Of a stretch of 64,000 nucleotides of DNA, positions 19,251 through 52,037 are shown one piece after another. The notes under the pieces are model-generated. The model saw only the letters and a program-made list of their open reading frames with translations, was not told the DNA's origin and searched no databases. Every line of letters begins with the position of its first letter. Positions within the stretch are counted from its first letter, which is position 1. A program made the position numbers and the translations under genes. The stretch is from Bacillota bacterium (GTDB lineage Bacteria; Bacillota; Clostridia; Acetivibrionales; DTU013). The stretch is taken from contig JAEWQC010000006.1 in NCBI GenBank assembly GCA_023399355.1, forward strand, positions 8,422 to 72,421, written 5' to 3'.

Positions 19251-20195
19251 ATGATGGGTAAGAAAATTCTAGTTGATTTAAGTCATCCTTTTAGTGCGGA
19301 TATACCAGTGTGGCCGTATTTTGCAAAACCTAAAATAGACACCATGCACAATCTTGCAAAAAGTGGCGTTTTAACTCAGAAAATTGACGTTGTCATGCAC
19401 TGCGGCACACATGCGGATGCCCCGCGTCATGTTATGGAATATGAGTTTGATGGCAAACGTGCACGTTATACACATGAGCTTCCATTGGACGCTTATTATG
19501 GCGATGCGGTATGTTTGGATATCCGTGTTGAGGATTGGGGACTTATTAAACCGGCACATCTTGAAGATGCTTGCAAACGTGCAAATATCAAACCAGAAGA
19601 ACTCAAGGACATGGTTCTTTGCTTAAGAAGTGGAATGCATCTGAAATTTGATGATAGCAAGGATTACTATCATTATTCCTGCGGATGCGGCAGAGAAGCG
19701 GGAGAATGGTTTGCAAAGTACCATCCGAAATGCGTAGCGATGGATATGCAGGCCCTGGATCATCCTCTTCACACGACTATGGGCCAAAACGGGCCTCCGT
19801 CAATATCAATGGATCTCGCAGGCAAGTCGGGCAGACCGATTTCTGAAGAATATACCGAGAAATTCGGGATTGAAGCATATGCGGAATTCCACAAACCTAC
19901 CTTCATCAAAGTATTTGGAAAAGAAAGGTATATGCGGGCGTATGACAAACTGGAAGCAGCCGGTCAGCCCGGAACCTGGGAGCCGTGTCACAAGCTCATG
20001 ATGGGCAACGGCATTGTCGGTGTGGAAAACCTCGGAGGAGACCTTGACAAGGTCGTAGGAAAACGGTTCAAATTTATGGCATTCCCAATCCGCTGGTATC
20101 TTGGGGATGGTTCCATGGTCCGCTGTGTTGCTGAAATCGACGAAGACGATCTGAATCCTGTTCCCGATAGAACCTACAGATACGGCGGGTTCTAA
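19251..20195 (+). CDS. cyclase-family metal-dependent hydrolase (kynurenine-formamidase-like)
   Basis: 314 aa; GGAGG RBS. The signature HCGTHADAPRH (HxGTHxDxPxH) is present. Confidence 0.75.
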   Translation: MMGKKILVDLSHPFSADIPVWPYFAKPKIDTMHNLAKSGVLTQKIDVVMHCGTHADAPRHVMEYEFDGKRARYTHELPLDAYYGDAVCLDIRVEDWGLIKPAHLEDACKRANIKPEELKDMVLCLRSGMHLKFDDSKDYYHYSCGCGREAGEWFAKYHPKCVAMDMQALDHPLHTTMGQNGPPSISMDLAGKSGRPISEEYTEKFGIEAYAEFHKPTFIKVFGKERYMRAYDKLEAAGQPGTWEPCHKLMMGNGIVGVENLGGDLDKVVGKRFKFMAFPIRWYLGDGSMVRCVAEIDEDDLNPVPDRTYRYGGF

Positions 20196-20278
20196 ATAAG
20201 TTCGGGCTGCTTCTTCTGAAGTTTATTCAGGAAGTATGCGCAGACATGAATCAAAAATTTCAGGAAAGGAAGTAATCA

Positions 20279-21112
20279 GTGTTGGGAGAATTTGATAATA
20301 AAGTAATTTTGACTGTAGCCACAACAGGCGCCTGGCCGTCAAAGCAGGATAACCCCAATATACCCCTGCAGCCGCGTGAGATAGCGGACGAGATCTATGC
20401 TTGCTGGAAGGCGGGAGCTTCAGTCGCACATATACATGTGCGGGACGACAACAACAAATCGTCCATGAGCTTTGAAAAATTCAAGGAAACCGTAGAATAC
20501 ATCCGTGCGACTGACTGCGATATCGTTATCAACCTTACCACATCCGGTCAGCTTGGACTTGCGGATGAGGACAGGATGAAACACATTATTGCGTTGAAAC
20601 CGGAACTGGCTTCCTATGACTGCGGTTCAATGAACTGGCTGCACACATCCGTATTTGAGAACAGCCCGAAATTCCTGGAAAAGCTTGGCGTGGTGATGCA
20701 GGAGAATAACATCAAACCTGAAATCGAAATTTTTGACACCGGAATGATTTATAATGCGCTGTATTACCTTAAGAAAGGCATACTGAAGGCGCCGCTCCAC
20801 TTCCAGTTCGTATTGGGCGCCGCAGGCGGAATGGATGCCACGGTGGAAAATTTGGTTTTTCTGAAAGGATTGATCCCTGCCGGATCAACATGGGGAGCGC
20901 TCGGAATAGGAAAAGGACATCTGCCGGTCATGTATGCGGCACTTGCGCTCGGCGGACATTTAAGAGTTGGCATGGAGGACAATATTTATTACTCAAAAGG
21001 CGTTTTGGCAAAATCAAATGTTGAATTTGTCGAAAGAACAAAACGCATTGCGCGTGAATTGAACAAAGAAATTGCAACGCCTGACGAAGCAAGAAAAATA
21101 TTGGGCTTGTAA
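20279..21112 (+). CDS. beta-keto acid cleavage enzyme (BKACE / DUF849; 3-keto-5-aminohexanoate cleavage enzyme family)
   Basis: 277 aa; GTG start after [40 protein letters not shown] and the C-terminal [14 protein letters not shown] closely track the Kce sequence as I recall it. Confidence 0.85.
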
Positions 21113-21180
21113 CATATATTCATATTACGGTTGCTGGACTATTTGTGCCGCCGGCGACAGCGGCGGAATGGAGAATTTGT

Positions 21181-22365
21181 ATGGGAGAAGTTGTCATTAT
21201 CAGTGCGGCCAGGACTCCGGTGGGCAATTTTGGAGGGACTCTCGCGGGCCTTTCCGCGGTGGAATTGGGAAGAATTGCGGCGGAAGAGGCTATAAAAAGG
21301 GCGGGAATAGATAAGAAAATTATAGATGAAGTGATTATCGGGAATGTGCTGTCAGCCGGGTTGGGACAGAATCCTGCAAGGCAGGTTTCGGTCAATGCCG
21401 GATTGCCGCTGACGGCAAGTGCGTTTACAATAAACAAGGTTTGCGGATCGGGCTTAAGGGCGATCAGTCTGGCAGCGCAGATCATCAAAGCGGGCGATGC
21501 GGATGCGATACTTGCAGGCGGTATGGAAAGCATGAGCAATGCGCCGTATCTTTTGAACAAGGCAAGATTCGGCTACAGGATGGGAGATGGCACTCTTGTG
21601 GATTCCATGACCCAGGACGGACTCATGGATACATTTAATCATTATCATATGGGTATTACTGCGGAAAATATTGCTGAGAAGTGGAATATTACAAGGGCCG
21701 AGCAGGACGAATTTGCAGCTGCAAGCCAGCAGAAAGCTGAAAATGCCGTTAAGACAGGAAGATTCAATGATGAAATAGTGCCTGTGATGATTCCGCAGAA
21801 AAAAGGAGATCCGACCCTGTTTGACACGGATGAGTTCCCGAGATTCGGGACAACCTGCGAAATACTGTCCAGGCTCAGGCCGACCTTCAAAAAAGATGGA
21901 ACTGTTACTGCCGGAAATTCATCGGGCATTAATGACGGAGCTGCCATGATGATCGTAATGGATAGTGAAAAGGCTGCAAGGCTCGGACTTAAACCGATGG
22001 CAAAGATCGTTTCATACGACTCCGCCGGATTGGAGCCGGAAATCATGGGCTACGGGCCGGTGCCATCGTCAAGGAAGGCGCTTATAAAGGCCGGGCTTAG
22101 GGTTAAGGATCTTGATCTTGTTGAAGCCAATGAGGCTTTTGCAGCTCAAGCTCTTGCAGTTATGGCGGATCTGGAGCTTGATCCGCAGAAGGTTAATGTA
22201 AATGGCGGAGCCATAGCTCTTGGACATGCGGTCGGTGCATCCGGTGCACGGATTACAACTACGCTTTTGTATGAAATGCAAAAGCGCAAATCCAGATATG
22301 GTCTTGCAACCCTTTGCATAGGGGGAGGGCAGGGAACGGCATTGATCGTGGAAGGCTGCTGGTGA
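21181..22365 (+). CDS. acetyl-CoA C-acetyltransferase (thiolase II)
   Basis: ORF 21145-22365; start ATG 21181. [22 protein letters not shown] (active-site Cys), [24 protein letters not shown] and CIGGGQGTA. Confidence 0.9.
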
Positions 22366-22450
22366 ATCTGAAACAGTGCAGAATTTGAAAGGCGGCGTGC
22401 AACCCGGTTTGCCGAATAACCTCCGCCGCTCAACTTAATTTGGAGAAAAA

Positions 22451-23677
22451 ATGGTGAAGAATAATAAAAATGCGTGGCTGGTTTTATGGATGGCAACAGG
22501 TATCAATTTTGTCGGCGGCATGCTCTATATTTGGAGTGTAATCAGCAAAGGCCTGATCAATGAGCTGCGCTGGACAAGTAAACAGGCATCTTTGCCGTAT
22601 ACAATTGCAATCATCTCATTTGTTGTTTTCATGACCGTGTTCGGGAAAATTCAGGATAAATACGGTCCGAAACTCACGGCTATGTTTTCTGGAATATTTA
22701 TAGGCCTTGGACTTATTCTCTCCGGTTTTACTACAAATCCGGCCGTGATGGTACTGACCTTTGGTCTGATTACAGGCGCCGGTATAGGAATATCAAATAT
22801 TTCCACTACTCCTCCGGCCGTAAAATGGTTTCCGCCTGACAAAAAAGGTATGGTCACAGGTATTGTCGTTGCCGGAGTAGGCATTGCATCTGTTTTTTAT
22901 TCTCCTCTGGCTAATTACCTTATAAAAACCATCGGGATTTCAAAAACATTTATTTATATAGGAATTGGCGCCCTTGTACTGATTCTGACAGGGGCACGGT
23001 TCCTGACAAATCCACCCGGGGGGTATGAAGCAGGCGGTATTAACGGACAAAACCGTTTAGGGCAGGATTCATCAGGATTTGGAAGAGATCTGAATTGGAG
23101 AGGCATGTTAGGTCGCCCTGATTTTTATATGTTGTGGCTGATGCTGGCATTTTCTTCATCAGCAGGTCTTATGATTATAGGACATGCCGCAAACATTACA
23201 AAGATCCAGGTACACTGGGAAGGCGGATATATTCTGGTTATACTGCTTGCCATATTCAATGCAGGCGGAAGGCTGCTTGGCGGAATTATATCAGATCGGA
23301 TCGGACGGATTCCGTTGATGCGTGTAATATTTATCCTTCAGGCACTGAATATGTTGTTTTTCTCAAGGTATACTACTATCGTGCTGCTTGCGGGAGGAGT
23401 CGCACTGGCGGGATTTTGTTACGGCGCCACATTTTCCATATTTCCTGCCACTGTGCTTGACCTGTATGGAGTAAAAAATTTCGGCTCGAATTATGGGCTG
23501 ATAATGACAGCATGGGGTTGCGGCGGCGTAATAGGGCCGATGGTTGCGGCAGTATCCGTGGATTCCGCGAAGACATACAATATTGCATATTTGATAGCGT
23601 GCATACTTCTGCTTGCTGCATTTTCCATAACATTTCTAATGAAACATAAGAATGTCTCTAATAATGTGATTTTATGA
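22451..23677 (+). CDS. MFS transporter (oxalate/formate-antiporter-like subfamily)
   Basis: 408 aa with about 12 hydrophobic segments and a central hydrophilic loop (GGYEAGGINGQNRLGQDSSGFGRD). GGAGA RBS. Confidence 0.8.
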   Translation: MVKNNKNAWLVLWMATGINFVGGMLYIWSVISKGLINELRWTSKQASLPYTIAIISFVVFMTVFGKIQDKYGPKLTAMFSGIFIGLGLILSGFTTNPAVMVLTFGLITGAGIGISNISTTPPAVKWFPPDKKGMVTGIVVAGVGIASVFYSPLANYLIKTIGISKTFIYIGIGALVLILTGARFLTNPPGGYEAGGINGQNRLGQDSSGFGRDLNWRGMLGRPDFYMLWLMLAFSSSAGLMIIGHAANITKIQVHWEGGYILVILLAIFNAGGRLLGGIISDRIGRIPLMRVIFILQALNMLFFSRYTTIVLLAGGVALAGFCYGATFSIFPATVLDLYGVKNFGSNYGLIMTAWGCGGVIGPMVAAVSVDSAKTYNIAYLIACILLLAAFSITFLMKHKNVSNNVIL

Positions 23678-24124
23678 TCAGATCTATTTTTTCAGAAATA
23701 GGAACCGATGCATTATTTTTGATGTTCGCACTTTTGAATCTTGTTCTCGTGTTAACAGGAAAACGGCTTAACCGGATTATGATGCCACTGTTTATGTGTT
23801 TTATTGTCTGTATCAATTTTTTGATTTTATCATGATGAACAGGTGGCCCGAAGTTATCTTTGATCAAGTAAACAGTAATTTTTTTACCGGCTTCCTGCCT
23901 TATATTTTACTGGATATTGTCGCCCTTGTATACTTTCTGAAATCCCACAGGGTAAAAAGCACCTTTTTGGAATAGGATCGACTGCAGCCGCCAAAGGTCC
24001 GGCCAGTCGGTTGAGGCATCATTTTACGCCCGCAGCGTGTTGAGAGAAAATGCAACAATGACTTAGGTATTGTAAAAAAGTATTAATAGGAGTTGAAAAT
24101 AATTCATTTGTTTGATAAGCTAAA

Positions 24125-24215
24125 ATGGAAAGTAAAAAGGTAAACTTGTTGAAAGACAAGGGCACAAAGCTGCGAGCCTAAAGTGAAAGCCAGGGTAGTC
24201 GGGTTGCCACTGCAT
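24125..24215 (+). promoter_or_regulatory. candidate c-di-GMP-I (GEMM-I) riboswitch aptamer
   Basis: Five blocks occur in the same order as in the Vc2 aptamer as I recall it: GGTAAAC (24139-45); hairpin CTTGTT-GAAA-GACAAG (24145-60); GGCACAAAGC (24161-70); GCCTAAA (24176-82); GGGTAGTCGGGTTGCC (24193-208). ATG..AGT (24125-33) can pair with ACT..CAT (24209-15) as P1. Confidence 0.6.
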
Positions 24216-24235
24216 AAAACAGTAATAAAAGTCGT

Positions 24236-24258
24236 AGCTGTTACACCACGGCTTTTTT
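24236..24258 (+). terminator. short intrinsic terminator (riboswitch expression platform candidate)
   Basis: AGCTGT (24236-41) pairs with ACGGCT (24248-53), including one G-U pair, and runs into a T6 tract (24253-58) about 30 nt before the kinase GTG start. Confidence 0.4.
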
Positions 24259-24291: not shown

Positions 24292-27200
24292 GTGACTGAA
24301 AAAGTAAACAAGAAGCGTATATTACTGCTGTCCGGCATGGTTGCTGCAATTATTGCTTTTATATGCATATTCAGCTTCTCAAAAGCTGACATTAACCGGG
24401 TACACACTGAAACCGGGGTACTGGACCTGCAAAACCGTGAGCCGGAAGAAAGCAATGTTTTGAGCTTATCCGGCAAATGGGAGTTCTACTGGGAACGCTT
24501 TGTATCCCCCAGGGAACTCGCGTCTGACAGCTTGGCACCGGATTTGTACGCAGAGGTGCCAAAAGTCTGGAACAGCTACAAAATCAACGGCAAGGGTCTG
24601 CCGGGCTTCGGCTATGCCACTTACCGGCTCAAGGTCATAAATGCCCCGGCAGGTGAGCCGCTGTCCCTGAGGATTCCTACCTTTTCCACAGCTTATGCTT
24701 TGTATGTCAATGATCGCCTGCTTGCTTCCAATGGAAAGGTTGGTGCGGACAAGGAGCATTCTTCGCCCGGATACCAGCCTCGGGTGGCGGAGTTCACGCC
24801 GGAGGAATCCAGCTTCGAAATTATCGTTCATATCTCCAACTTCACCTATGCAAGGGGCGGGATGTGGTATGCTATCAATATGGGTACGCCGCAGCAAATC
24901 AGGGCAATGGATAAAGCCATTGCGGACAAGGACCTGTTTCTGTTCGGCGCCCTGTCTGTCATGGCCTTTTATTATCTTAGTATTTTTCTTCTGCGCCGCG
25001 AGGACAGGAGCAGCCTGTATTACGTATTCATGTGCCTCATCTTTGCCAGCCGGACAGTGATCTATGGGGATTTTCTGATTTACAGGCTGGTACCGTTTAT
25101 CAGCTTTGGATCGATCGTCGCCATAGACTACATCACCTTATGCTGGTTCCCCGTTTGCGCCGCTTTTATGTGCGGATCGCTGTTCCCGGAAGAAAGCGCG
25201 AAAAAGATTTTGAGAATATTCTTTATTTATGCCGTGTCCTTCACGCTGCTGTTCCTTCTGACTCCAATTTCATTTTACAGCGGGCTGGTCTACATCGTAC
25301 AGGTATTTTCAATTCTTATCGGAGCTTATGCCATTGCAGGCATAACCGCAGCCTTCCTGAAAGGCGGAAAGGACGCGCCGGTCGTATTACTGGGAGCGCT
25401 GACGGTCATTATTTGTGCTGTACACGATATGTTGTTCCAGAACAATATCCTGCTCAGCAATATAGGGGAACTGGTGCCTTTCGGATTATTCGTCCTTCTT
25501 CTTCTGCAATCCTTCGTTCTTGCAAGGCGCTCTGCGGAGGCATTCAGAAATGTCAGCGGGTTGTCTCAAAAGCTGCTTCGGCTGGATAAAATCAAGGATG
25601 AATTTCTTGCAAATACCTCCCATGAGCTTCGTACGCCTCTGAGCGGTATCCTTGGCATCTCGGAGGCCATGCTCAAGGGCAGTGACGGGGAGATGAGCAG
25701 CCTTCAAAAGAAGGATCTTGCCGTTATTGCCGGCAGCAGCCGCAGGCTGGCCAATCTGGTGAACGACATCCTTGATTACTCTAAAATGAAAAACGGGGAC
25801 ATTCTGCTAAATATTCGTTCCATACAGATAGAGGGCTTGATTTATACAGTCAGGAAAGTATTTCAACAATTGAGTCAATCAAAGGAATACGAAGTCATCT
25901 CCGATATTCCGCAAGACCTGCCCCCGGTGATGGCAGACGAAAACCGGGTAGTTCAGATCCTCTACAATCTTGTGGGAAATGCCGTGAAATTTACCGTCAG
26001 AGGTCGCATAGAAATATCGGCAAAGATAATGGGAAGTATGGTGGAAGTCTGTGTCAGCGATACGGGAGAAGGAATTCCGGAAGATAAGCTGGAAGACATC
26101 TTTAAACCCTTTGAACAGGTAGATACATCTCTTACACGCAGACATGGCGGCACCGGACTGGGTCTTCCCATCACAAAGAAACTTGTGGAATTGCAGGGAG
26201 GCAGCATCCGGGTCGAATCCCATCCGGGGTCTGGTTCCAGGTTCATCTTTACGCTGCCGTTGGCGGATGTATCTCCGGCAGCTTCAGATCAGGTCATGGA
26301 AGATAGCGGGTCGGATATGATGGTGCAGGAATTGGGCGTATCTCTTGAAGAAGCGCCTGGTACGACGAAAAAAGCGGAGGGGGGCGTTCGCGTTCTACTG
26401 GTGGATGATGACGCGGTTAATTTGCAGGCCGCCGCATCCACCCTCCGGTTGGGCGGCTATGGTGTCGTAACGGCTGGCAGCGGCAAAGCCGCCCTGGCAG
26501 AACTGGAGAAACATCGGGAGTATTCGATTGTCCTATTGGATGTAATGATGCCGGAAATGTCCGGCTATGAAGTGTGCAGGAAGCTCCGCGAAAACAGGTC
26601 TCTCTTCGATCTGCCCGTGTTGATTCTGACTGCCAAGGCTTCCACGGAGGATATTGTAATGGGCTTTGAAGCGGGAGCAAACGATTACCTGCCAAAGCCG
26701 TTTGAACCGGAGGAACTGCTGGCAAGGGTCAGGACCCTCACCGGGCTGAAGGCTTCCGTGGACAGGGCGATGGCTGCGGAGGTTGCTTTTATGCAGGCGC
26801 AGATCAAGCCCCACTTCCTGTTCAATACCCTCAACGCCATTTCATCCTTCTGCGACAGCGATACACAGCGGGCCCAGCAGCTCATCGACGATTTTTCCAA
26901 TTACCTGCGGCAATGTTTTGATTTCAAGAGCCTTGAAATGTGCGCACCGCTGGAAAGGGAACTTAGCCTGGTGAACTCTTATGTGGAGATAACAAAGGCA
27001 CGGTTTGGAGATAAACTTAGAGTGGAATTCGACATTGACAATAGGATAAAGACCCGGATTCCTGTGCTTTCCATACAGCCTCTGGTTGAAAACGCCATCA
27101 TTCACGGCCTCAGGAAAAAGGGCGGTAAAGGCACCGTCACCATAAGCGTGAAAAAGGTAGCGGAAGGTGTATTGGTCAAAGTGGAGGATGATGGTCAGGG

Positions 27201-27372
27201 TATCCCCGCCGACAGGCTTGAGGCAGTGTTCCTGTCTGAGGCGGAGCAAGGGATCGGACTTTGGAATATAGATACAAGGCTGAAAAAATTGTTCGGGAAA
27301 GGGCTTACCATAGAAAGTGTGCCGGGAAAAGGCACCAGGGTAGCCTATGTCATCCCGCCGGAGGTGGATTGA
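24292..27372 (+). CDS. hybrid sensor histidine kinase: 7TMR-DISM sensor + HisKA/HATPase + REC + second LytS/YehU-type His_kinase/HATPase
   Basis: ORF 24262-27372. The TTG at 24262 lies inside the terminator T-tract, so GTG 24292 after AGGAAAGG is preferred. Domains in order: extracytoplasmic WEFYWERF...YATYRLKV... domain; seven TM helices; FLANTSHELRTPLSGILG (H-box); NLVGNAVKFT...DTGEGI...GGTGLGL; receiver VLLVDDD...LLDVMMPEMSG...LTAK...KPF; then QIKPHFLFNTLNAISSF and PLVENAIIHGL...GIGLWNIDTRL (PF06580-type core). Confidence 0.85.
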   Translation: MTEKVNKKRILLLSGMVAAIIAFICIFSFSKADINRVHTETGVLDLQNREPEESNVLSLSGKWEFYWERFVSPRELASDSLAPDLYAEVPKVWNSYKINGKGLPGFGYATYRLKVINAPAGEPLSLRIPTFSTAYALYVNDRLLASNGKVGADKEHSSPGYQPRVAEFTPEESSFEIIVHISNFTYARGGMWYAINMGTPQQIRAMDKAIADKDLFLFGALSVMAFYYLSIFLLRREDRSSLYYVFMCLIFASRTVIYGDFLIYRLVPFISFGSIVAIDYITLCWFPVCAAFMCGSLFPEESAKKILRIFFIYAVSFTLLFLLTPISFYSGLVYIVQVFSILIGAYAIAGITAAFLKGGKDAPVVLLGALTVIICAVHDMLFQNNILLSNIGELVPFGLFVLLLLQSFVLARRSAEAFRNVSGLSQKLLRLDKIKDEFLANTSHELRTPLSGILGISEAMLKGSDGEMSSLQKKDLAVIAGSSRRLANLVNDILDYSKMKNGDILLNIRSIQIEGLIYTVRKVFQQLSQSKEYEVISDIPQDLPPVMADENRVVQILYNLVGNAVKFTVRGRIEISAKIMGSMVEVCVSDTGEGIPEDKLEDIFKPFEQVDTSLTRRHGGTGLGLPITKKLVELQGGSIRVESHPGSGSRFIFTLPLADVSPAASDQVMEDSGSDMMVQELGVSLEEAPGTTKKAEGGVRVLLVDDDAVNLQAAASTLRLGGYGVVTAGSGKAALAELEKHREYSIVLLDVMMPEMSGYEVCRKLRENRSLFDLPVLILTAKASTEDIVMGFEAGANDYLPKPFEPEELLARVRTLTGLKASVDRAMAAEVAFMQAQIKPHFLFNTLNAISSFCDSDTQRAQQLIDDFSNYLRQCFDFKSLEMCAPLERELSLVNSYVEITKARFGDKLRVEFDIDNRIKTRIPVLSIQPLVENAIIHGLRKKGGKGTVTISVKKVAEGVLVKVEDDGQGIPADRLEAVFLSEAEQGIGLWNIDTRLKKLFGKGLTIESVPGKGTRVAYVIPPEVD

Positions 27373-27373
27373 A

Positions 27374-28462
27374 ATGATCAGGGCGATTGTTGTGGATGAT
27401 GAACAGCCTTCCCTTGACAAGCTGGATAAGCTGCTGAAGGACAGCGGTCTTGCAGAGATTGAAGGAAAGTTTACCGAGCCGCTGGCTGCATTGGCGTTTT
27501 TGCAGGAAAACAAGGTGGATGCCGTATTCCTGGATATAGAAATGCCGGAGATAGACGGTATTGAGCTCTCAAACCATATTGCCGACCTGCAGGCGGAGAT
27601 TGCCGTTGTTTTTGTAACGGCTTATAATCAGTATGCGGTGGAGGCCTTCCGCCTGAATGCCCTTGATTACCTTATGAAACCGGTATCGGCTGACAGGCTT
27701 GGTGAAACCCTTTGCAGGATCATAAAAGAAAAAAGCATTCCTGTAAGTTCCGGAGAAATCCATGTCCGTTGCTTTGGCGGATTCAAAGTGGATATCGGAA
27801 TGAAAGATGTGAAGTTCCGCACCGAAAAAGCGGAAGAACTCCTGGCCTTTCTGATTGACAGGAAGGAGACTTTTGTCAGCCGGATCGAAATCATTGACAA
27901 CCTTTGGGAGAATTTTGACGGAGACAGGGCACTCATTCATTTCAACACCACACTTCATTATGTTAAAAAAGCATTGCTCCCACATGGAGTCCGCATATCC
28001 ATCCTGCATGAAAGAGGATGCTACAGACTTGATGCGGCAGGCCTATCCTGCGATTATCTGAAATTTTTGGAGTTTGCGGAAAAAAACAAAACTGCCGGAC
28101 AGGAAAACATCCTGAAATATGAAGAGGCGGCAGGCCTTTATACGGGAGAATACCTTTACGGTCTGGAATATGATTGGGCGCTGGCAGGAAGGCTGCTGCT
28201 GGAAGAAGAATTCATCCGTCTGCTGCTTGAAATGTCGAGGTATTACACAGAGACAGGCGACAATCAGAAAGCCGTTAAATGGCTGAAATCAGGCCTGCAG
28301 AAGCAGCCACTCCACAGAGAGCTGAATTACAGGCTGATCGAAGCCTTACTTCTGACCAATGAGCGTATGCTGGCTGTAAAGTATTATGAGATTTACAGGA
28401 ACGGCTTGAAAAAAAAGCTGAAAATAGAAGCGGATGATGAATTTAGGAAACTATTCCAATAG
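27374..28462 (+). CDS. response regulator: REC + OmpR/SARP-type winged helix + BTAD
   Basis: ORF 27347-28462. ATG 27374 follows GGAGGTGG and lies 1 nt after the kinase stop. IRAIVVDDEQ...FLDIEMPEIDG...TAYNQYAVEAFRLNALDYLMKP is a LytR-style receiver. VRCFGGFKV...AEELLAFLI is a SARP-like DNA-binding domain. The TPR-like BTAD tail is YTGEYL...WALAGRLLLEEEFIRLLLEM. Confidence 0.8.
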   Translation: MIRAIVVDDEQPSLDKLDKLLKDSGLAEIEGKFTEPLAALAFLQENKVDAVFLDIEMPEIDGIELSNHIADLQAEIAVVFVTAYNQYAVEAFRLNALDYLMKPVSADRLGETLCRIIKEKSIPVSSGEIHVRCFGGFKVDIGMKDVKFRTEKAEELLAFLIDRKETFVSRIEIIDNLWENFDGDRALIHFNTTLHYVKKALLPHGVRISILHERGCYRLDAAGLSCDYLKFLEFAEKNKTAGQENILKYEEAAGLYTGEYLYGLEYDWALAGRLLLEEEFIRLLLEMSRYYTETGDNQKAVKWLKSGLQKQPLHRELNYRLIEALLLTNERMLAVKYYEIYRNGLKKKLKIEADDEFRKLFQ

Positions 28463-28525: not shown

Positions 28526-28660
28526 CATTGTGCCCGGCAGAAGTTGTTTGTTGAAACAGGGGTCGCCGGCGGAAATGGCGGAAAGCTGTCTCCGGCAGGT
28601 ACGGCGACCAGAGCGGAAATGGTACAGATACTGTATAACCTGTTGGTAAAGCGCGGGTAA
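28526..28660 (+). pseudogene. orphan 3' remnant of an SLH-domain gene
   Basis: The frame ending at TAA 28658-60 reads ...GVAGGNGGKLSPAGTATRAEMVQILYNLLVKRG*, the typical end of an S-layer-homology domain. Compare ...LLNPLGGSTRAEAAVMLYRLF at the end of the giant ORF. No start codon or upstream domain is present. Confidence 0.35.
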
Positions 28661-28859
28661 TAACGAGCTGCGTTTCAACGAGGCGGGAGATATGCCTGTC
28701 GCCTGCAAACCAAATCGGTACCCACCGCCTATAAAAGTGGGGGACATGTTGAGCCTCGTTATAAGTTATTTTTATGTTGACATAAATTCTATAAATAGAA
28801 ACAAAATTCGGCAAATTTTTTACAATCTTCATTTCTCCCAGAAAAATGAAATTATGCTT

Positions 28860-28884
28860 AGAACCCTTGTATAACAGGGGTTCT
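28860..28884 (+). other. strong stem-loop between the two-component operon and the giant ORF
   Basis: AGAACCCTTG (28860-69) pairs with CAGGGGTTCT (28875-84): 10 bp including one G-U pair, with a 5-nt loop. No U-tract follows, so a terminator role is uncertain. Confidence 0.4.
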
Positions 28885-28904: not shown

Positions 28905-28939
28905 CGGTTAAGTCCCGGTTCAGTGGGATTTTATATAAT
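28905..28939 (+). promoter_or_regulatory. 11-bp-phased direct repeat (CGGTTAAGT / CGGTTCAGT) abutting a TATAAT -10 box; candidate activator-dependent promoter of the giant ORF
   Basis: CGGTTAAGT lies at 28905-13 and CGGTTCAGT at 28916-24, a period of 11 nt. TATAAT lies at 28934-39, 9 nt after the second repeat. There is no recognisable -35 hexamer. The site is 100 nt upstream of ATG 29039. Confidence 0.4.
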
Positions 28940-29038
28940 AAAGTCGAACAGGTAACTTTTATCGTCACATATAAGAAAATCATAACAATTGTAATTGATA
29001 GGAAACTCAATATTTATTGATATGGGAGTGACTTTTTT

Positions 29039-32000
29039 ATGAAAAAGAGAATCAACCGATTTATTGCCGTCCTGTTATCATTTTTAGTACTTTTCGCATA
29101 TTTCCCCGCTTTCATTGTCGTCCATGCCGCCGAGCCTCTATTGACGGTTTCGGAGTGCAACGAATACAAGAAACTGATCAGCAGCAGCCTTGATTATACA
29201 ATAGCGATCTCGTCCGACAAGAGAGTAGTTTACTGGGGGTCTCCAACCAGCCCTGCAAGGAATGTGCCGACTGATCTTGAAAATGTCAGGATGGTGGCTG
29301 CCGGATACAGATTTGCTTTGGCTTTGAAGGATGACGGCAAGGTTGTGGCCTGGGGCGACAACGAATTCAATCAGTGTCAGGGAAACGGTCTCACTGATGT
29401 GAAATACATCACAGCCGGTAATTCCTTTGCTCTGGCGTTGAAAAATGACGGTACGGTTGTGGCCTGGGGCGCAAATGAAGGCGGTCAATGCGATGTGCCA
29501 GCCGGTCTCAGTGATGTTGTTGCCATCGAAGCGGGCAGTAACCATGCGCTTGCATTAAAAAGCGACGGCACCGTCATTGCCTGGGGAGCCAACTATACCG
29601 ATTGGAAACAGTGTGATATTCCCATCGACAAAATAGATCCGGCCAATACGGCACTGCCGAAGATTGTCGCACTTGATGCGCCATGGGGACACAATCTGGC
29701 GGTCCGGGAGGATGGATCGGTTGTTGCATGGGGAAATAATGAAAAATTACAGGCGACTGTTCCAGCCGGAATTACAAATGCCGTGGCTGCATCAGGTTCG
29801 CTTTGGTGCTCAATGGTACTCATGGCGGACGGTACGGTAAAGGAATGGGGCAAAACCTACAGCGCCATGGGCATATCGGAACCGTCGGGACTACCCTTTG
29901 TAAAAGCTGTTTCCTCCCAGCAGGATATGTCATTTGCATTGGTTGAAAATGACAGCGGTTATTATAAGGTCATCCCATGGGACGGTAGTGGGAAAAAAGA
30001 GGAGATAAACCTGTCCGTAGGACCTAAAATCGTTTCCTGCGCCTTGCCGGCAGGAGGGGATAAGGATGGGGACAATTCCTATATTGATGTGAGCTTCAAT
30101 CGTGGGATATACGGGGATGCGACCGGGACAAGCGCCGTTTCCGCCTCGGCATTTGTACTGGAGTATCGGAAAAACGAGGGGTCGGCAAATAGTGTCACCA
30201 TTACTTCCGCGACGCGAACGGATGGAACGGAACTTCAGGGCGGAGAAACAACTGTACGGTTCCATCTGGCTGTAAATGGAACACCGAGCGGACAGGAAAC
30301 GATCGAAATCAAGCCGGCATATGATTCAGGCAATGTACCGGTTTACGACGGTAACGGTACCATGATTGAGCCTTCGCAGACCACTGGTGCGACATTCCTG
30401 AATACAACAATGCTTCGTTTCGTATCATCAACGATTGATGATGCCAATACATATATAGATGTGGTTTTCAATAAGGGGATTTACGGGGATGTTCAGGGAA
30501 AAACCGGGGTTTCGGTCAGCGATTTCAAATTCTCCTTCTACCGGAACGACGGTTCCGCGACCGGAGCAACGCTGGTGTCCCTGACCGATAAGGATTTCGT
30601 ATCAACCACGCCCGGAGCGGAGACGGTAAGGTTCAATTTTTCAATCGACGGTACGGTAAACGGGAAAGAGACGATTGAAATCAAGCCGGCCGATGGAAAC
30701 TCCGTATTTACCTCCTCCGGTGAAGCGATGCAAGCCAGCCGCACCACCGGACGCATCCCATTGTCACCGCCGGCGCCGGAGATTGTCGGGATGGAGCTTG
30801 CAAATGACAACAGCCACCTTGATATCACCTTTAACACAGGAGTGTATGGAGACAGGGATAATATCACTAAAGCCGGCTTTAACCCCGTTACCTCCGGAGC
30901 AATCATTTGCCATCTCCAGTCTTTTGGAGGGGGAGCGACGAACGTCAGTATCAGCAGCTTTACCAGGCTTGACGGAATAACGCCGCTGATCGGAGGGGAG
31001 ACTGCTGTCCGGCTGAACCTGAGTTTCACCGGCAGCCCTACGGGAGTAGAATATTTCGGCATATGGGTGGAGCACCTGTATAATTCCAAAGGTGTGTTTT
31101 TGGGATCGGAGAATTCGACGATGATCAAGTTGAAGGCGTTATCGCCAGCGATCGGACTTTGTTCCGCCGCGCCGGATAACGAATATATTGACGTAAACTT
31201 CAACATGGGAGTATACGGCGGGGTGCAAGGATTCGACGAAAAAGGCAGGCCGACGGGTGTAGATAAGGATGATTTCAAGCTCGAATATGTAAAAGGCAGC
31301 GGAACCACTGAGAATGTGACTATTCGGGCCATCGGCGCAAATACGGGTTCAGACCCTGCAAATCCCGCTGTATTGAAAGGAGGAGAGAAAACGGTCCGGG
31401 TCTTTCTTTCTCTTACAAATCCGGCAACCGGCGGGGCGGGGGCGGAGACTGTCAAAATCTCTCCGAAGAATGATGAATCCATTTACAGTGAGGATAAACA
31501 ACCTGTACCTTCCAGCAGTTCGACCGGAAATGTCAATCTCCATGCTTCGTTCCCCGTGATTGAATCCTATAAGCTAGCAGCGGACAACAGCCATATTGAT
31601 GTCGACTTCAATCTGGGCGTTTATGGGGACAGTGCGCATACTCTCCCTGTTTCCGCACCCAACTTCAGCGTGAATTTCTATACCTATTCCTATAACGGCG
31701 GACGTGCAACTGTCGCAACCATCGGAGCAATAACAAGACAGGACGGATCGCCGCTTGAAGCCGGTGACAAAAATCTGAGGCTGCGGCTCAATATCACGGG
31801 AAAACCCAGCGGCGCTGAAACGATTGCGATCTACCCTTCCTCAGCCAACCAGATCTATAATTCCATGGGCAAGTCCATTCTTTCCGGTTCCAGCCAAAGG
31901 GTGCCGGACACCTTCCTGAATCCTGTTCCGGAAATTCTTACAGGGACTCTGGCTGCGAATCTGAGTTATATGGACGTTACGTTCAGCTGCGGTGTTTATG

Positions 32001-35000
32001 GGGATGCGGCTCATACTGCGGCAGTGGATGCAGATGACTTCAAAATCGTATTCAACAAAAATACCGGAGGCTCTGCAACCGGCGTAACAATTGATTCAGT
32101 AAAGAAAACGGATACGGAGGACAAGGACGATGCTGCTTCCGAGCTGACAGGAGGAGAGACGGCGTTTCGTTTTTTCCTATCGATTGACGGCAGCCAGAAT
32201 GGGCAGGAAACGATCCGGATCATGCCTGCCGACGGCAACTCCGTATACTCCGGCGCCGGCAACCCTATGGCGCAGGAACAGTCAACTCCGTCCAGAAACC
32301 TGACCGTTGGACCTCCCGAGATTACCAGCGCAAAGCTTGCGCGGGATAACAGCTATATCGATATCAATTTTAGTTCAAGCGTATATGGTGACAGTATTCA
32401 CAGTACAGGTCTAAATGAGGAGGATTTCAGCCTGTCCGTCGAAAGCAACAACGGGGATGTAAACAGAGCGCATATTTCTTCTGTAAGGCAGATCGACGGA
32501 ACGACCCCGCCCTCAGGCGGCGAAAAAGCTCTGAGACTGTATCTTGTTACCCAGAAAGTCGTTACAGATGAAAAAACAAATGAGACGATGCTTGTGGCGA
32601 CGTCGGCAAGCGGGACAGAGAAAATTGAAGTGAAGCCGGCCGGCGGGAGCTCAATCTATTCCTTCTCCGGGACGGCAATGGATGCCGCGCAGACAACAGG
32701 TAAAATCAGCCTTGCCGAAATTCCCAGGATTGTCTCCGGCGTGATGGCGGCGGATTACAGCTATGTCGACGTGACCTTCAGCAAGGGAGTGTATGGCGGA
32801 AGCAACGGCAGGACACCCCTTTCGGCAGGCAGCTTCCTGCTGTATTTCGAGCGGAATGGAGGCATCGCAACGAATGTCTCCATCAAAGCCGTGCGCAAGG
32901 CATCCGGTACGTCGCTCTCAAGCGCGCCGGCACTCACGGGCGGGGAGACGACTGTCCGCGTATTCCTCAGCGTACTCGGAGCCGCCGACGGCAAAGAGTG
33001 GATCAAAATCCTGCCGGCTGGTGCCAGGGCGATCTATGACTCGTCCGGCCGCGCGATGTCGGATGATAAATCGACAGGAATGCTTTACCTGAAGGGCAGT
33101 ACGCTTCAAATCGTATCGTCTTTCATTGCTGAGGATAACAGCTACGTTGATGTCAATTTCAATGTCGGTGTGTACGGAGCTGCCGACGGCGATTCTCCGG
33201 TCACTCTGAATTGTTTCGGGATTGCCGCCACCGACGGCAGAATCGCTTCAGTTACCAAAACGGACGGGGAAGCATTGACGGGTGGCGAGACGACCCTGAG
33301 GTTCCACTTGAACTTCCCGTATGTGCAGTATCCGGGAGCCGCTTTTGCAATTGTTCCGGCTTCTTCATCGGGGGGACCGAAGGTATATAACGCAAACGGG
33401 GCCGAAATGCCGCTGAACCAGCAGACCGGCATGATCCCGCTGAACAATGTGGCGTTGGATTCCAGCGAATTGTCCCAAAACAATGCGTATATCGACTTAA
33501 AATTCGATATGGGCGTTTATGGAAACAATGCGCAAAATACGCCCATCGGCCCGGAGGATCTGGCGCTGGAATTCAGACAGAACGGAGGTACGGCGACAGG
33601 CGCAGCGATAAGCTCCATCCGTCCGGCGGACAATGCCGTCGAGGCGGATGCAGGTACGCTCAAAGGCGGTGAGGCAACCGTAAGGGTATTCCTGAAGGTG
33701 AGCGGAAATCCGGATGGTAAGGAAACGGTAAGCCTTTCGACTGTTCCGGGAAGCGTCATCGGATCGCATATTCTCGCGGGAGTATTGACGACGGGCGCAA
33801 TATCCATGTACTCCGGCGCTTTCAAGGCCGTTTCCGCTGCCATGGGCGACGATAACGCCTATGTTGACATGACCTTCAGCCAGGGGATATACGGGGATGC
33901 CGCAGGCAGGACTCCCGTGGACGCAAACGATTTTGCGGCAAGCTTCTCCGGAGGACCGGGATCCCTGACCGGCGTGAGTATTGCAGCCGTCGGGAAACCG
34001 GACGGTGAAAAACCGGGAACGGCTTCCATGCTGACAGGCGGAGAAAAGACGGTCCGTATTTTCCTTTCCGTGTCGGGAACCTTAAGCGGATCGGAAAGCC
34101 TTAAAATAGAACCGAAAACAACGTCATCCATCTATCCGCTGCATGGTGCGGCCTTGTCCGGAGAGAACTCTTCAGCCACTGTACAGATGATTTCCAACAA
34201 GCCGGAAATTCTCTCATCGGTGATGGCAGCCGGCAGCAAATATGTAGATGTCATATTCAATATAGGCGTATATGGGACCGCCTCTTCAGGACCGGTGACC
34301 AGGGACAGCTTCGATTGCGCTTTCAACGCCAATGCGGGAAATGGCGGGAACGGCAAAATCACCGTATCCGTAAACTCCGTCAGGAAGCCTGACAGCGGGA
34401 GCGAAGCATTTGCTTCCGCTCTGACGGGCGGGGAAAAAACGCTCCGCTTTTTCCTCAAAATCAACAAGGCTCCCGGTTCGACGGCAACGGATTCCATCAT
34501 ACCCACCGGCCTGGAGACGATTGTCATCACCCCTGCGCAAACCATATATTCCAGTACAGGGCAGCAATTGAGCACGTCCGCGTCCACCGGCCCGGTCGGC
34601 CTCCTTGCCCCGGAGCCGGAATTCGGGGATTGCTCCGCGTCGCAGCAGAGCGGTACCGATAAGAAGCTCCAGTATATTGATGTCAAATTTACCACCGACG
34701 TTTTTGGGGCCGCCGACGGTTCCACCCCTGTCGATCCGTCCGATTTTGAATTGCTGTTCGCCAGGAACTCCGGAAATGCGGAGAGGGCGGAGATCCTGTC
34801 CGTCTGCAGGCCTGATCCGGCCGAGCCTGCAAAGGACTCGGAGCTGACGGGAGGAACCTCCGCCATCAGGTTCTATCTGAAGACCTATTTTGGAAATGGC
34901 GCTAACGCAGTCGAAGCTTCGACTTCGGGTGTGGAGACTGTGGTTATCAAGCCAAAAGACAATTCCATTTTCAACAGATCAGGACAGGCAATGGCTGTGA

Positions 35001-38000
35001 CAAAAGCAACAGATGCGCTGAAGCTTGCGAATATGTTTCCAAGGGTCGTTTCGGCAAGAGTGGGACCCGGGAACGGTTATGTCGACGTTACCTTCAGCAC
35101 CGGTATTTACGGTAATTCCGGGAGTACCGGCAAGGCGGCTTATTATTCCAATTTCCAGGCCGTGTTCACCAGAAACGGAGGTGCGGCGACAAACGCAAAC
35201 ATCAACTGGGCTGCGAAACCCGACAACTCCGACAGGCTGCTGGCAACGACGCTGGTCGGGGGCGAGGAGACGATCCGGTTCTTCCTTACGGTAACCAATG
35301 TGCCAAGCGGAGTCGAGATGGTAGAGATCGTACCTGCCAGTCCCCAATTGAGGGACGCAGACGGGCTGACGCTGAAAGCAGCGCAGTCAACCGGCAGGCT
35401 CAGGCTTGTCACCCCGTACCCTCCCCAGTGGTCATTGTCCGGTTCAAGCGAAGAAGCCCCGGGATGGATGTCGGACTATAGAATCAGTACGGGAAATGCG
35501 CATACGCTTGTCGTAAAAAACGACGGTACCGTCGCGGCATTCGGGGAGAACTCCCAGGGACAGGCAAATGTGCCGGGAACTTTGTCCGGCGTGGACTCTG
35601 TGGCTGCCGGGGATACATTTTCGGCAGCTCTGAAAAAGAATGGAACACTTGTCGGGTGGGGTGCGCTCAAGATACCGGCTGGAATGACAAACGTAAAAAT
35701 GATTGCAGCCGGCGGCAGCACGTTGTTCGCACTCAGGGCCGATAGCAGCGGGGAGTACATATCATTGGTCGGGGACGATTACTATAAGTATGACGATGAC
35801 AACGACAGGAATTATTATGTTGAGAAACTGAAGCTAATGGACAAGGATGTGCCGGTCAAGGCAATATCAGCAGGCAGCGACGAGCATCTGCTAGTGCTCA
35901 GGAACGACGGCACGGTTGAAGCCTACGATTATAATGACCGGTTGACTTCCGACTATTATGGGCAGTGCAGCATACCTGAAGGCCTGAAGGAGGTCAGAGC
36001 CGTTTCCGCCGGATTCGGCTTCTCCCTGGCGCTGAAGAAGGACGGCACCGTCGCGGGATGGGGAAATGTCAGGCTGCCGACGGGTGGACTCGTCAATGTT
36101 TCCGCGATATCCTCCTCTCTGAGGGGGTACTGCGTGCTCAAGACGGACGGTACCGCAGAGGTTTATGATATCAACGGCGTCAAGCTTATAAATAGCGGTA
36201 CGGCTGTCCTTAGCGGCATAATCGGGGTCAGCGCGGGAGCGGATACCTATCTTTTTGTCAGCAGGGACGGCACTGTGGATGGCCTGCGGGATACGGGAGT
36301 ATTCGGGTATATGGAGGATATCGATACTCCGGCGGACTTAAACATTTATAAGCATGTGCTGAATGGGACGATCTCCGGTAACGCATTCGTAACTCTCGAA
36401 CTAAGGGATTCAACCGCGGTAAATGCCGCAAAACTTGGCATGTATGGCGGCAACGGCTTGAGAGGCATCACCGCGGCGGATCTGAAGGTGGAAATTGTAA
36501 AGGGCAGTCAAAGCCTGCTGGGGATAACGATCACGGATGTGAAAAAAGGATCGAGCATATATGAGGATGCCGCCGCCGGCGATACGGCTGTCAGAGTTAT
36601 GCTCAGGGTAGCGGGAGTGCCCGACGGTACCGAGAGATTCGTCATCAAGCCCACTACGAGCTTCTCTGTGGCGGATGCTTCCGGCAATTCCATTTTCGCC
36701 TCACAGCCGTCAAATGTGATCGCGCTGGACAGGGGCTCCGAATACGAGCTGTATTCCAGGAGGATAGACGCAGGCTGGAGCCATACCGTTGCGATGAAGG
36801 ATACGGGATACGTCTTCAACTGGGGGGACAACACCTATGGACAGGCTCCCGCAATGCTGAACCGGGACAATGCGGTGCAGGTTTCCGCCGGATATCATCA
36901 CACGGTGGTTCTGCTCCATGACGGAACAGTGAAGGAATGGGGCGAGAATTATTACGGTCAGCTGGATATGCCCGGTAACGTTAAAAATATCATGCAAATA
37001 TCGGCCGGCGGATACCATACGCTGGCGTTGAAGTCGGACGGCACCGTTCTTGCATGGGGGGATGATTTCTATAAACAATGCACGGTACCTCTGGGTCTGT
37101 TCAATGTGATTGCCGTTTCCGCGGGCGGGCATCATTCCCTCGCCCTGAAGTCCGACGGCACGGTGGCCGCCTGGGGGGACGACAGCTTCAGGCAGTGCAG
37201 CGGCATGCCTTCCGGACTGAAGGAGGTGGTCGCGGTTTCGGCGGGCGACAACTTCTCCCTTGCATTGAAGCGGGACGGGACAGTCGTCGCCTGGGGGAAT
37301 AACGATAAAGGCCAATGTACGGTACCTTCTGGTCTGGCAAACATAAAAGCGGTCTCTGCCGGCTACAGGCATGCGCTCGCTCTGAAGTCGGACGGTACGG
37401 TGGTCGCCTGGGGGGACAACAGCAAAGGTCAATGCACGGTACCTTCAGACCTGACAGGTGTATTTGCTGTTTCTGCAGGGGCATATCACAATGCCGCCAT
37501 TAAAAGCGACGGCAAAATTATAGCCTGGGGCGACAACAGCGCCGGACAGGCCGCTGTTCCCGAAAGCGGACTGCCGCCGAAGGTCGTGTCGGCTGTAATG
37601 GCTGAGGACAACAGTTATATAGATCTGCAGTTCAATGCAGGCGTATACGGATCTCCTGATGGAACGGGCCCGCTGAAGACCGGTAATTTCAAAGTGGTAT
37701 TTGACGGAAAATCCGCTGGCGGCGCTACGGGAGTTTCCATCTCATCCGTCAGAAAAAACGACAATCCGCTGGAGAGCAAAGCTTCCGCTCTTACCGGAGG
37801 TGAAAATACCGTCCGTGTATTCCTCACATTCTCCGGCGTGATAAAAGGCGTCGAAACGGTCCAGCTGACGCAGGATAGTGCAAAACCGATCTATGACATG
37901 TACAAGGTGCCAATACAGAATGCAAACCTGACACCGGTATTTACGCTCAAGTTACAGAAAACCGGAAATGACATTATGGTCGACAATATCAGTTCCGGCG

Positions 38001-47305: not shown

Positions 47306-47344
47306 TGCGTCAGCCTGCAACCTGACGGGAAATTGGGAAAGCCG

Positions 47345-47382
47345 TGAGGCCGCTGAAACATAGCGGCTTCAGGGCTTTGTTG
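47345..47382 (+). terminator. probable intrinsic terminator of the giant ORF
   Basis: TGAGGCCGCT (47345-54) pairs with AGCGGCTTCA (47362-71): 10 bp with one G-U pair and a 7-nt loop. The tail is GGGCTTTGTTG. It starts 40 nt after the stop codon. Confidence 0.45.
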
Positions 47383-47430
47383 TAACATAAATAAACCCCC
47401 GGCTCTGCCGGGGGAGACAAAGAGCTTTAG

Positions 47431-47766
47431 CTTCAAATAGATAAAAAAAACCTCCAATGTAAGAATTACCACATAGTATTTGCAGCGAAGTATCGCAGGC
47501 AAGTGATATTTGGGAAGATAAAGCAAGACATAGGAAAAATGCTAAGGGAGCTGTGCGAAAGAAAAGGAATAGAGATAATAGAAGCGGAGTGTTACAAAGA
47601 CCATGTACATATGCTCGTATGGATACCACCCAAATACAGCGTATCAGAGATTGTGGGTTATCTAAAAGGAAAAAGCTCACTGATGATATTTGATCGGTTC
47701 GCCAATTTAAAGTACAAATATGGCAACCGACATTTCTGGTGTAAGGGAAAAATATTAAGTATGTAA
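47431..47766 (+). mobile_element. tnpA: decayed IS200/IS605-family tnpA (Y1/HUH transposase) remnant
   Basis: The frame open from 47431 reads ..NLQCKNYHIVFAAKYRRQVIFGKIKQDIGKMLRELCERKGIEIIEAECYKDHVHMLVWIPPKYSVSEIVGYLKGKSSLMIFDRFANLKYKYGNRHFWCKGKILSM*. The HUH motif (HVHMLV) is present. No start codon exists for the first ~10 residues, and the C-terminal helix that carries the catalytic Tyr is missing. A GC-rich hairpin CCCCCGGC-tct-GCCGGGGG lies at 47396-47414, just upstream. Confidence 0.75.
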
Positions 47767-48355
47767 TACTTCAATGTGCTGCAATGCAGGGCATTTATAT
47801 CATAAATATGGAAGAGACGACAAATATGTTTTTTATCTTGAAACTCATTTGGAAAAGGGAAGTGAAACATATGTAGCGCTGATAAATTATTATAAGGAGC
47901 ATGATAATTTTGACGGGGCATGCCGAGTGGCAGAACAGGCGCTGGAAAAATGCAAAGATGATCTGACGGAGGCTTTTATATATCTCCTTGTTGATGCGGA
48001 AAAGAGAGAAGATAAAGACAAGTGCAAAAAAATTGTATAGCAGTGCGAAGAGAAGGCGATTGGCAGATATTAACCGAATAGATCAAGTGTTAAGTGATTT
48101 TAATTCAGGTAGTTATACTTGAAAAAAGATATTGTATGGGACTTGGCTTCAAATGACGAATTGATTTTATGACAAATTGAGAAGTATATATTTGACAGAA
48201 TTACACTTATAACTCTTTACACAGGTGAATATTTCAGATAGAATAAATGCGAACAAATGTTTGGCACAGAGAAAAAAATGAAACAATCACAAATTGTGAC
48301 CGTTAGGTATTTGGATATAGATCATCAATAAATCAAAGCGGAGGAAATAAACCTT

Positions 48356-48707: not shown

Positions 48708-48724
48708 CATTTAAAGGCGTGGCA

Positions 48725-48817
48725 GCGGCAAAGTAAAGTACCGAGAAAACGGCAAGTAAAGTGAGGAAATCCGGCAATGAAATGTCAGAGATTTCGGCAA
48801 TGGAAGTGAGGATTTAG
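48725..48817. repeat. four degenerate ~23-bp tandem direct repeats (CGGCAA-N-GNAAGTGAGGAAAT-like)
   Basis: GCGGCAAAGTAAAGTACCGAGAAAA / CGGCAAGTAAAGTGAGGAAATC / CGGCAATGAAATGTCAGAGATTT / CGGCAATGGAAGTGAGGATTTAG, read directly from 48725-48817. Confidence 0.5.
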
Positions 48818-52010: not shown

Positions 52011-52037
52011 ACAGACTAATAAGTGCGGGGATGTTTC

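Follow-up and report, generated by a model that had tools for sequence, protein, structure and literature searches.

A c-di-GMP-I riboswitch aptamer predicted to repress a hybrid kinase and SARP-like regulator operon beside a giant surface-protein gene in a Bacillota bacterium

Results

The subject of this study is a leader RNA of the cyclic di-GMP-I (c-di-GMP-I) riboswitch family and the operon that it precedes. Both lie in a stretch of 64,000 nucleotides (hereafter, the window) from the Bacillota bacterium assembly GCA_023399355.1 (contig JAEWQC010000006.1, positions 8,422 to 72,421 of the forward strand). Three consecutive genes on the + strand of the window were called with Pfam: a hybrid sensor kinase of 1026 amino acids (24292-27372), a response regulator of 371 amino acids (27347-28462) and a secreted surface protein of 6088 amino acids (29039-47305). 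The kinase gene starts with GTG and has its ribosome-binding site, AGGAAAGG, at 24276-83. The aptamer is located in its 5' leader, on the same strand and 81 nt upstream of the GTG, and a hairpin followed by six uridines (U6) lies between the two. A preliminary description of this DNA had read the leader as a c-di-GMP-I riboswitch in front of a kinase/regulator pair beside an 18-kb surface-protein gene. The gene calls hold, and together with the family match described below they bear out that reading.

The search proposed in the preliminary description, a covariance-model scan for the c-di-GMP-I family RF01051, was carried out with cmscan and Rfam 15 on both strands of the whole window (4227 families). 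RF01051 (gathering score 35) matched at 24129-24211 (+) with 69.3 bits. The E value of 1.6e-11 is far beyond chance, the match is full length (model positions 1-87 of 87), and a rescan of the sub-region agreed with it. It was also the only Rfam match above the gathering score in the 64 kb. When the consensus structure was mapped onto the window, all of the consensus pairs (20/20) were G-C, A-U or G-U, so that both helices of the aptamer can form: P1a (24145-50 / 24155-60, with a GAAA loop at 24151-54) and P1b (24168-78 / 24194-205, with a distal stem at 24183-84 / 24189-90), besides the closing pairs at 24140-41 / 24164-65. The sequence blocks on which the preliminary description had based its reading are all present where it had placed them, namely GGTAAAC (24139-45), CTTGTT-GAAA-GACAAG (24145-60), GGCACAAAGC (24161-70), GCCTAAA (24176-82) and GGGTAGTCGGGTTGCC (24193-208), all on the + strand. 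Both the GAAA tetraloop and the CCUAAA half of its receptor (24177-82) are present; the opposite strand of the receptor is CAGGG here, CAAGG in the orthologues and uAuGa in the Rfam consensus. The pairing of ATG..AGT with ACT..CAT that had been suggested as P1 is weak and is lost in the orthologues. The 179-nt leader as a whole is no more stable than its own shuffles (folding z = -0.26), and the evidence for the aptamer is therefore the covariance-model match and not thermodynamic stability. Based on this match, the segment 24129-24211 almost certainly belongs to the c-di-GMP-I family. By its model score, its helices, its ligand-contact residues and its place in a leader the RNA is a member of that family, and it does not constitute a new riboswitch class.

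The ligand contacts of the Vibrio cholerae aptamer Vc2 are G20, A47 and C92, and the equivalent residues of Bc1 are G11, A38 and C81 (PMC11218506). At the equivalent positions the window has G24139, A24166 and C24207 (model positions 11, 38 and 83). These residues make it very probable that the ligand is c-di-GMP. A different cyclic dinucleotide, as in the GEMM-Ib riboswitches that sense cyclic GMP-AMP (cGAMP), or a variant class with some ligand of its own, seems very improbable to us. Such a reading could appeal to the fact that the orthologous leaders (L081/L082 and L083, see below) score best on RF03167 (c-di-GMP-I-GGC), with 62-63 bits against a gathering score of 59. The best clan member for the window, on the other hand, is RF01051, and the advantage of RF03167 in the orthologues stems from P1 and loop columns and not from the binding site. 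Judged from the Rfam consensus lines, the two families differ at the binding site by a G in RF03167 (GACGCGAAgC) for an A in RF01051 (GACGCAAAgC). Membership of RF03167, with G at the A47-equivalent position (consensus GACGCGAA), was considered and rejected: the window, L081 and L083 all have A there (GGCACAAAGC in the window). Because this is the position that separates the two families, the three leaders are canonical at the binding site. The G20-equivalent position points in the same direction. It is an A in cGAMP-selective GEMM-Ib members, and it is a G here.

The leader is shared with few relatives. Only two close kinase clusters were found, with 87% identity, on the contigs L081/L082 and L083. 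As L082 equals L081 in this region, there are three distinct leaders to compare: those of the window, L081 and L083. The contigs L081-L083 carry the same kinase, the same regulator and, in the same position, a gene for an RCC1/SLH protein of about 6030 amino acids (6030-6035), and the same riboswitch is present about 70 nt upstream of their kinase genes. Since their upstream neighbours differ, the module that runs from the promoter to the giant gene appears to be mobile as a unit. The aptamer core of the window is 95.7% identical to those of the orthologues (3 differences in 70 nt), and it is here that the resemblance of the leaders is greatest. The four-fold degenerate sites of the adjacent kinase gene are 75-77% identical, which would give about 17 differences per 70 neutral sites. 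The differences that do occur in the aptamer are in P1a (U.G to C-G, U-A to U.G, and one mismatch in L083) or at an unpaired position. Counted over the three leaders, 95.6% of the consensus-helix cells can pair, as against 30-52% when the partners are slid. Every shuffle attained the observed covariation score of the aptamer at this sample size (n = 3). More distant orthologous loci (L001-L003, L084-L086 and L167-L170) have kinases with 60-75% identity, and that of L004 has 33%; no Rfam match was obtained in these 11 loci (L001-L004, L084-L086, L167-L170). A genome scan with the kinase protein yielded three useful orthologues with 60-72% identity, the closest named genome being that of Candidatus Formimonas warabiya (L001; kinase 72% identical). 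A metagenome scan with the same protein gave distant kinases only, none of which exceeded 35% full-length identity.

A candidate sigma-70-like promoter is found immediately upstream of the aptamer, at 24093-24121 (+), with TTGAAA (24093-98) as the -35 element, a spacer of 17 nt and TAAGCT (24116-21) as the -10 element. A TG at 24113-14, inside the spacer, would form an extended -10. L081 and L083 have the identical hexamers and TG, and over the whole site identity is 86-90%. Transcription from this promoter is predicted to start at about 24128-24129, which is where the aptamer match begins. The three riboswitch-bearing loci become similar to one another from an upstream block onwards (GTTGAGAGAAAATGCAAC..., 24038-24092, +). 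This block has 68-70% identity to L081 and L083; upstream of it, where the loci have different neighbouring genes, identity is about 35%. The sequence GTTGAGAGAAAATGCAAC itself (24038-24057), some 40 nt upstream of the -35 element, is kept in all three leaders and is similar to the proximal repeat, GGTTGAGTGG, of the box that precedes the kinase gene in relatives (the RR-box, see below). It could be what remains of the proximal repeat in a displaced ancestral RR-box promoter, or the site of another factor.

The part of the leader downstream of the aptamer contains a hairpin that resembles an intrinsic terminator (24229-24258, +). Its stem is formed by 24229-38 and 24245-54, and its U6 (24253-58) ends 33 nt upstream of the kinase GTG; it is the short hairpin running into T6 that the preliminary description had pointed out. 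The hairpin is weakest in the window (-6.5 kcal/mol), and its energy is -10.1 kcal/mol in L081 and -13.7 kcal/mol in L083. Across the three leaders 90% of the terminator cells can pair, and the changes between leaders are one-sided (an A.C, for instance, becomes G-U in L083) and preserve or strengthen pairing. An antiterminator, AT1 (24168-24239, +), is predicted from the complementarity of AGCUGCGA (24168-75) and UCGUAGCU (24232-39), which can form 8 bp. As AT1 consists of the 5' strand of P1b paired with the 5' strand of the terminator, neither the aptamer nor the terminator can coexist with it. For transcripts that end in the terminator loop, AT1 is the minimum-free-energy fold in the leaders of the window, L081 and L083, with an advantage over the ligand-free aptamer of 8.0, 9.5 and 4.8 kcal/mol in the three. 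All of its cells (24/24) pair in the three sequences, in which a single change, U-A to U-G, occurs. The duplex energy of AT1 is -12.7 kcal/mol, compared with -8.1 +/- 2.1 kcal/mol in shuffles, of which 2.7% were as good. In the minimum-free-energy fold of the full-length leader an alternative pairing (24202-11 / 24230-39) appears, which has the same switch logic.

Since ligand binding would lock P1b and thereby free the terminator strand from AT1, these folds predict an OFF switch. This polarity agrees with what is known of related elements: every class I c-di-GMP riboswitch locus measured in Clostridioides difficile is repressed by c-di-GMP (PMC6200980), and Bc1 of Bacillus thuringiensis is repressing, while Bc2 is said to act differently (PMC11218506). 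Repression through termination is the polarity that we favour, as somewhat more probable than not. The opposite polarity, in which the same aptamer and ligand would prevent the terminator, by a relay of short helices or by tertiary effects, and so turn on the kinase, the regulator and the giant protein, is biologically attractive, as c-di-GMP usually promotes surface attachment. Class I switches that act as ON switches exist, and the different behaviour attributed to Bc2 may be an example; the modest terminator of the window would also be easier to reconcile with it. What makes an ON switch unlikely is the distribution of complementary sequences. The linker is AU-rich, and the sole substantial conserved complement of the terminator strand lies inside P1b, which gives OFF logic. 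A relay of this kind had been contained in the preliminary description, which paired CACTG with CAGT and ACAG with CTGT, an arrangement that implies an ON switch. We rejected these helices, since CAGT at 24220-23 is TATT in L081 and CATT in L083.

A third possibility that we considered is that the aptamer acts mainly on translation or RNA stability, and that the hairpin with its U6 is a partial pause site or attenuator. The weakness of the hairpin in the window, the short distance (merely 33 nt) between the U-run and the GTG, and full-length folds in which the U-run region pairs with distant segments are compatible with this. We nevertheless regard it as quite improbable, because the ribosome-binding site AGGAAAGG lies in the loop of a separate local hairpin and no conserved complement to it was seen in the aptamer. 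Furthermore, conservation within the leader is lowest between 24259 and the start codon (61-64% identity), and it is the hairpin with U6 that is conserved, and stronger in the orthologues.

The first gene downstream of this leader encodes an unusual kinase. Its domain order according to Pfam is 7TMR-DISM_7TM, HisKA, HATPase_c, REC, His_kinase (PF06580) and HATPase_c. The chain thus holds two complete cores: HisKA/HATPase, a REC domain, and a His_kinase of the LytS/YesM type with a second HATPase. Unusual as this architecture is, it occurs in more than 100 database clusters. In a protein-database search with the kinase, 2365 proteins reached E <= 1e-100. Among the best 120 of these, no cluster with this architecture bore a functional name beyond the generic label 'ChiS'. 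The response regulator contains a REC domain, a weak OmpR-type winged helix and a BTAD domain. The BTAD match is clear (E 2.2e-11) and that of the winged helix, Trans_reg_C, is weak (E 0.0035, below the Pfam cut-off). The C-terminal 242 amino acids matched the Streptomyces AfsR SARP chain 8hvr_I with E 7.9e-4 over query residues 34-232. Judged by these matches, the output domain of the regulator is SARP-like and resembles the AfsR SARP.

The 6088-residue protein has an N-terminus that looks like a signal peptide, RCC1 propeller repeats, Big_5, PKD, CARDB and CarboxypepD_reg domains, and SLH domains at its C-terminus. The preliminary description had called it an adhesin; the domains are indeed those of a surface protein, and the adhesin role is a putative one, read from domain content. 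Its gene is separated from the regulator gene by a spacer of 576 nt, in which we identified a putative promoter that we refer to as the RR-box promoter (28907-28939, +). It contains the heptamers GTTAAGT (28907-13) and GTTCAGT (28918-24), within GTTAAGTCCCGGTTCAGTGG, and a TATAAT at 28934-39. The general form of the motif is GTTAAGT-N4-GTT(A/C)AGTGG, followed after 7 nt by TATAAT; the heptamers thus have a period of 11 nt. The second heptamer is 9 nt from the TATAAT, and the box (28907-26) stands in the place of the -35 element.

The motif first drew attention because it precedes the giant gene in the window and also the kinase genes of L001 and L003. Even with up to 2 mismatches allowed, the window contains a single match. 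Among 170 kinase loci, the exact RR-box is present in all 13 orthologous loci, always on the + strand, and in none of the 157 unrelated ones. Its location is always just upstream of either the kinase gene or the gene that follows the regulator. L001, L003, L084-86, L167, L168 and L169 each have a pair of boxes (at most 1 mismatch), of which the first precedes the kinase gene and the second the post-regulator gene. L002 has the downstream box only, and L170, in which the regulator gene is truncated, the upstream box only. The riboswitch-bearing loci (the window, L081 and L083) have a single box, before the giant gene. The genes preceded by a post-regulator box encode large SLH-domain proteins in most loci and a radical-SAM protein in L003. 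In the locus of Candidatus Formimonas warabiya (L001, 10276-11464) the post-regulator box precedes a gene for a REC-GGDEF diguanylate cyclase and not for a surface protein; because of this gene, the same two-component family is tied to c-di-GMP in the other direction.

SARPs bind direct repeats of heptamers that are spaced by 11 bp and adjoin the -10 element. By its position ahead of the giant gene, the RR-box connects this gene with the SARP-like regulator, and it is likely, as far as sequence can tell, that the regulator acts on the gene through the box. The preliminary description had envisaged a layered circuit in which the riboswitch controls a sensor kinase/regulator pair in front of the giant gene. 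This idea receives independent support from the RR-box, but it is not without precedent, as the cmrRST system of C. difficile (see Discussion) has a comparable design.

The remainder of the spacer shows some further features. The segment 28465-28770 is an insertion of about 300 nt that is missing from L081 and L083; it holds the 3' end of a reading frame with an SLH domain (...LSPAGTATRAEMVQILYNLLVKRG*, about 28567-28662) and has the appearance of a remnant left by a former surface-protein gene. A 10-bp hairpin (AGAACCCTTG-TATAA-CAGGGGTTCT, 28860-28884, +) that directly precedes the RR-box is kept in L081 and L083. It has no clear U-run, and it may end the kinase/regulator transcript. The predicted 5' untranslated region of the giant gene (about 95 nt, 28940-29038) is nearly invariant among the window, L081 and L083, more conserved than the four-fold codon sites, and contains the short inverted repeats CAATTGTAATTG and TCAATATTTATTGA. 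It had no match to any Rfam family.

The genes upstream of the leader (19251-23677) encode a BKACE beta-keto acid cleavage enzyme, a thiolase and an MFS transporter, and are unrelated to the riboswitch module. Downstream of the giant gene there are 2.2 kb (47306-49542) without an open reading frame of at least 120 amino acids. A gene for a NusG paralogue (49543-50148) then heads a cluster that looks biosynthetic (49543-62783), with an AMP-binding enzyme, an acyltransferase, ETF alpha and beta, a hydrolase, an acyl-CoA dehydrogenase and a nonribosomal peptide synthetase (NRPS) C-A-T module. By analogy, this arrangement is reminiscent of LoaP-type antitermination.

Discussion

The features described above can be combined into a circuit. 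A constitutive promoter of the sigma-A type (24093-24121) would drive the leader of the kinase/regulator operon. Without ligand, the 5' strand of the terminator (24232-39) would invade P1b by pairing with 24168-75, and the resulting antiterminator would allow read-through into the kinase gene. When c-di-GMP is bound, P1b would be locked, and the hairpin at 24229-54 with its U6 would form and terminate transcription, so that the operon would be off at high c-di-GMP. The REC-SARP regulator, once made, would probably activate the adjacent gene for the SLH-anchored giant protein via the RR-box at 28907-26. In the riboswitch-bearing loci, the leader occupies the position that is taken in most relatives by the RR-box promoter before the kinase gene, which would be autoregulatory. 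Control by the own regulator thus appears to have been traded for control by a second messenger in a small clade. Taken as a whole, that is, a functional class I aptamer, OFF control by termination, action of the regulator on the giant gene and an exchange of promoters, we consider this proposal only just probable. Family membership, gene content, conservation and the distribution of the box are observed, while the ligand, the OFF polarity, the transcription start and the binding of the box by the regulator are inferred.

Several observations weigh against it. Firstly, the terminator of the window is weak, as its energy of -6.5 kcal/mol goes with two mismatches in the upper stem, and the full-length minimum-free-energy fold of L083 holds the terminator even without ligand. 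Secondly, the complementarity that defines AT1 is only modestly unusual, since 18.5% of natural 16-mers from the kinase gene equal it. Thirdly, no compensatory double changes are present in the aptamer, the terminator or AT1 in the three leaders, where covariation is uninformative either way. Fourthly, the promoter is far from ideal. The preliminary description had proposed TTGAAA-17-TAAGCT, and its coordinates are right and its hexamers conserved, but TAAGCT agrees with TATAAT at only 3 of 6 positions, and the site falls below the threshold of a consensus scan, which did not list it. Fifthly, L002 has neither a riboswitch nor a box before its kinase gene, and the swap of riboswitch and RR-box is therefore not a strict either/or. 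Finally, OFF control of an activator of a surface protein runs counter to the usual expectation that c-di-GMP promotes adhesion.

It is instructive to compare the locus with known systems. With Vc2, Cdi-1-3 (flgB) and Bc1, all of the c-di-GMP-I/GEMM-I type, the RNA shares the two-helix aptamer, the GAAA loop of P1a and the CCUAAA of P1b. As in c-di-GMP-I riboswitches generally, the GGNAAAC, CAAAGC and UGCC blocks and the G, A and C ligand contacts are present, and the element is located in a 5' leader and followed by an intrinsic terminator. Repression by the ligand, which is predicted here, is a property of Cdi-1-3 and Bc1. On the other hand, P1 is very short in the RNA studied here, and the 3' half of its receptor, CAGGG, differs from the UAUGa of the Rfam consensus. 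Furthermore, the genes that it precedes are those of a hybrid kinase and a SARP-like regulator, instead of flagellar, chemotaxis, adhesin or protease genes.

The nearest precedent is the cmrRST operon of C. difficile, in which genes for two response regulators and a kinase are placed under a class II c-di-GMP riboswitch, Cdi-2-2. This is an ON switch whose aptamer has an unrelated fold, and it is combined with an invertible phase-variation element. Cdi-2-2 is missing from about one third of the C. difficile genomes, although the gene is conserved. The two systems are alike in that a c-di-GMP riboswitch heads a regulator/kinase operon, so that the messenger reaches further genes via a signalling system, and in that the riboswitch is patchily present among genomes. 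They differ in the class of the riboswitch (class I here), in its polarity (predicted OFF here) and in the regulator, which is of the REC-SARP and not of the OmpR type; in addition, a candidate target promoter can be named for the system described here. Because of the cmrRST precedent, a signalling operon under riboswitch control is not a new principle. What is new here is the combination of a class I aptamer, a dual-core kinase with a REC-SARP regulator, an identifiable target box and an apparent promoter replacement.

The regulator, for its part, may be compared with the SARP activators AfsR, ActII-ORF4 and DnrI, with which it shares an output domain made up of a winged helix and BTAD. The candidate box likewise resembles SARP boxes: it is a heptamer repeat with a period of 11 nt, stands in the -35 place and is 7-9 nt from a good -10 element. 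In contrast to these SARPs, the module is fused here to an N-terminal receiver and paired with a dual-core hybrid kinase in an anaerobe of the Bacillota, and its predicted targets are large SLH-domain surface proteins and not antibiotic biosynthesis clusters.

Conclusions

The comparison with the relatives leads us to a tentative view, which we put forward as a possibility and consider less probable than not. In a small clade of Bacillota related to Formimonas, a riboswitch together with a constitutive promoter may have displaced an autoregulatory RR-box promoter, so that control of the giant S-layer-anchored protein would have passed from positive autoregulation to repression by c-di-GMP, and the two-component family would perhaps be part of a c-di-GMP loop that varies between lineages. 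If this is true, the two-component system feeds c-di-GMP in one lineage, that of F. warabiya, and is silenced by c-di-GMP in the other. The circuit would be a compact one, leading from the second messenger through a riboswitch to a kinase and a SARP-like regulator, and from there through a named box to a 6088-residue protein anchored in the S-layer. The relatives that keep the autoregulatory promoter would provide a natural comparison, and the locus would be a case of regulatory rewiring through leader replacement. For the large, uncharacterised family of dual-core hybrid kinases, the RR-box offers a candidate DNA site together with candidate target genes.

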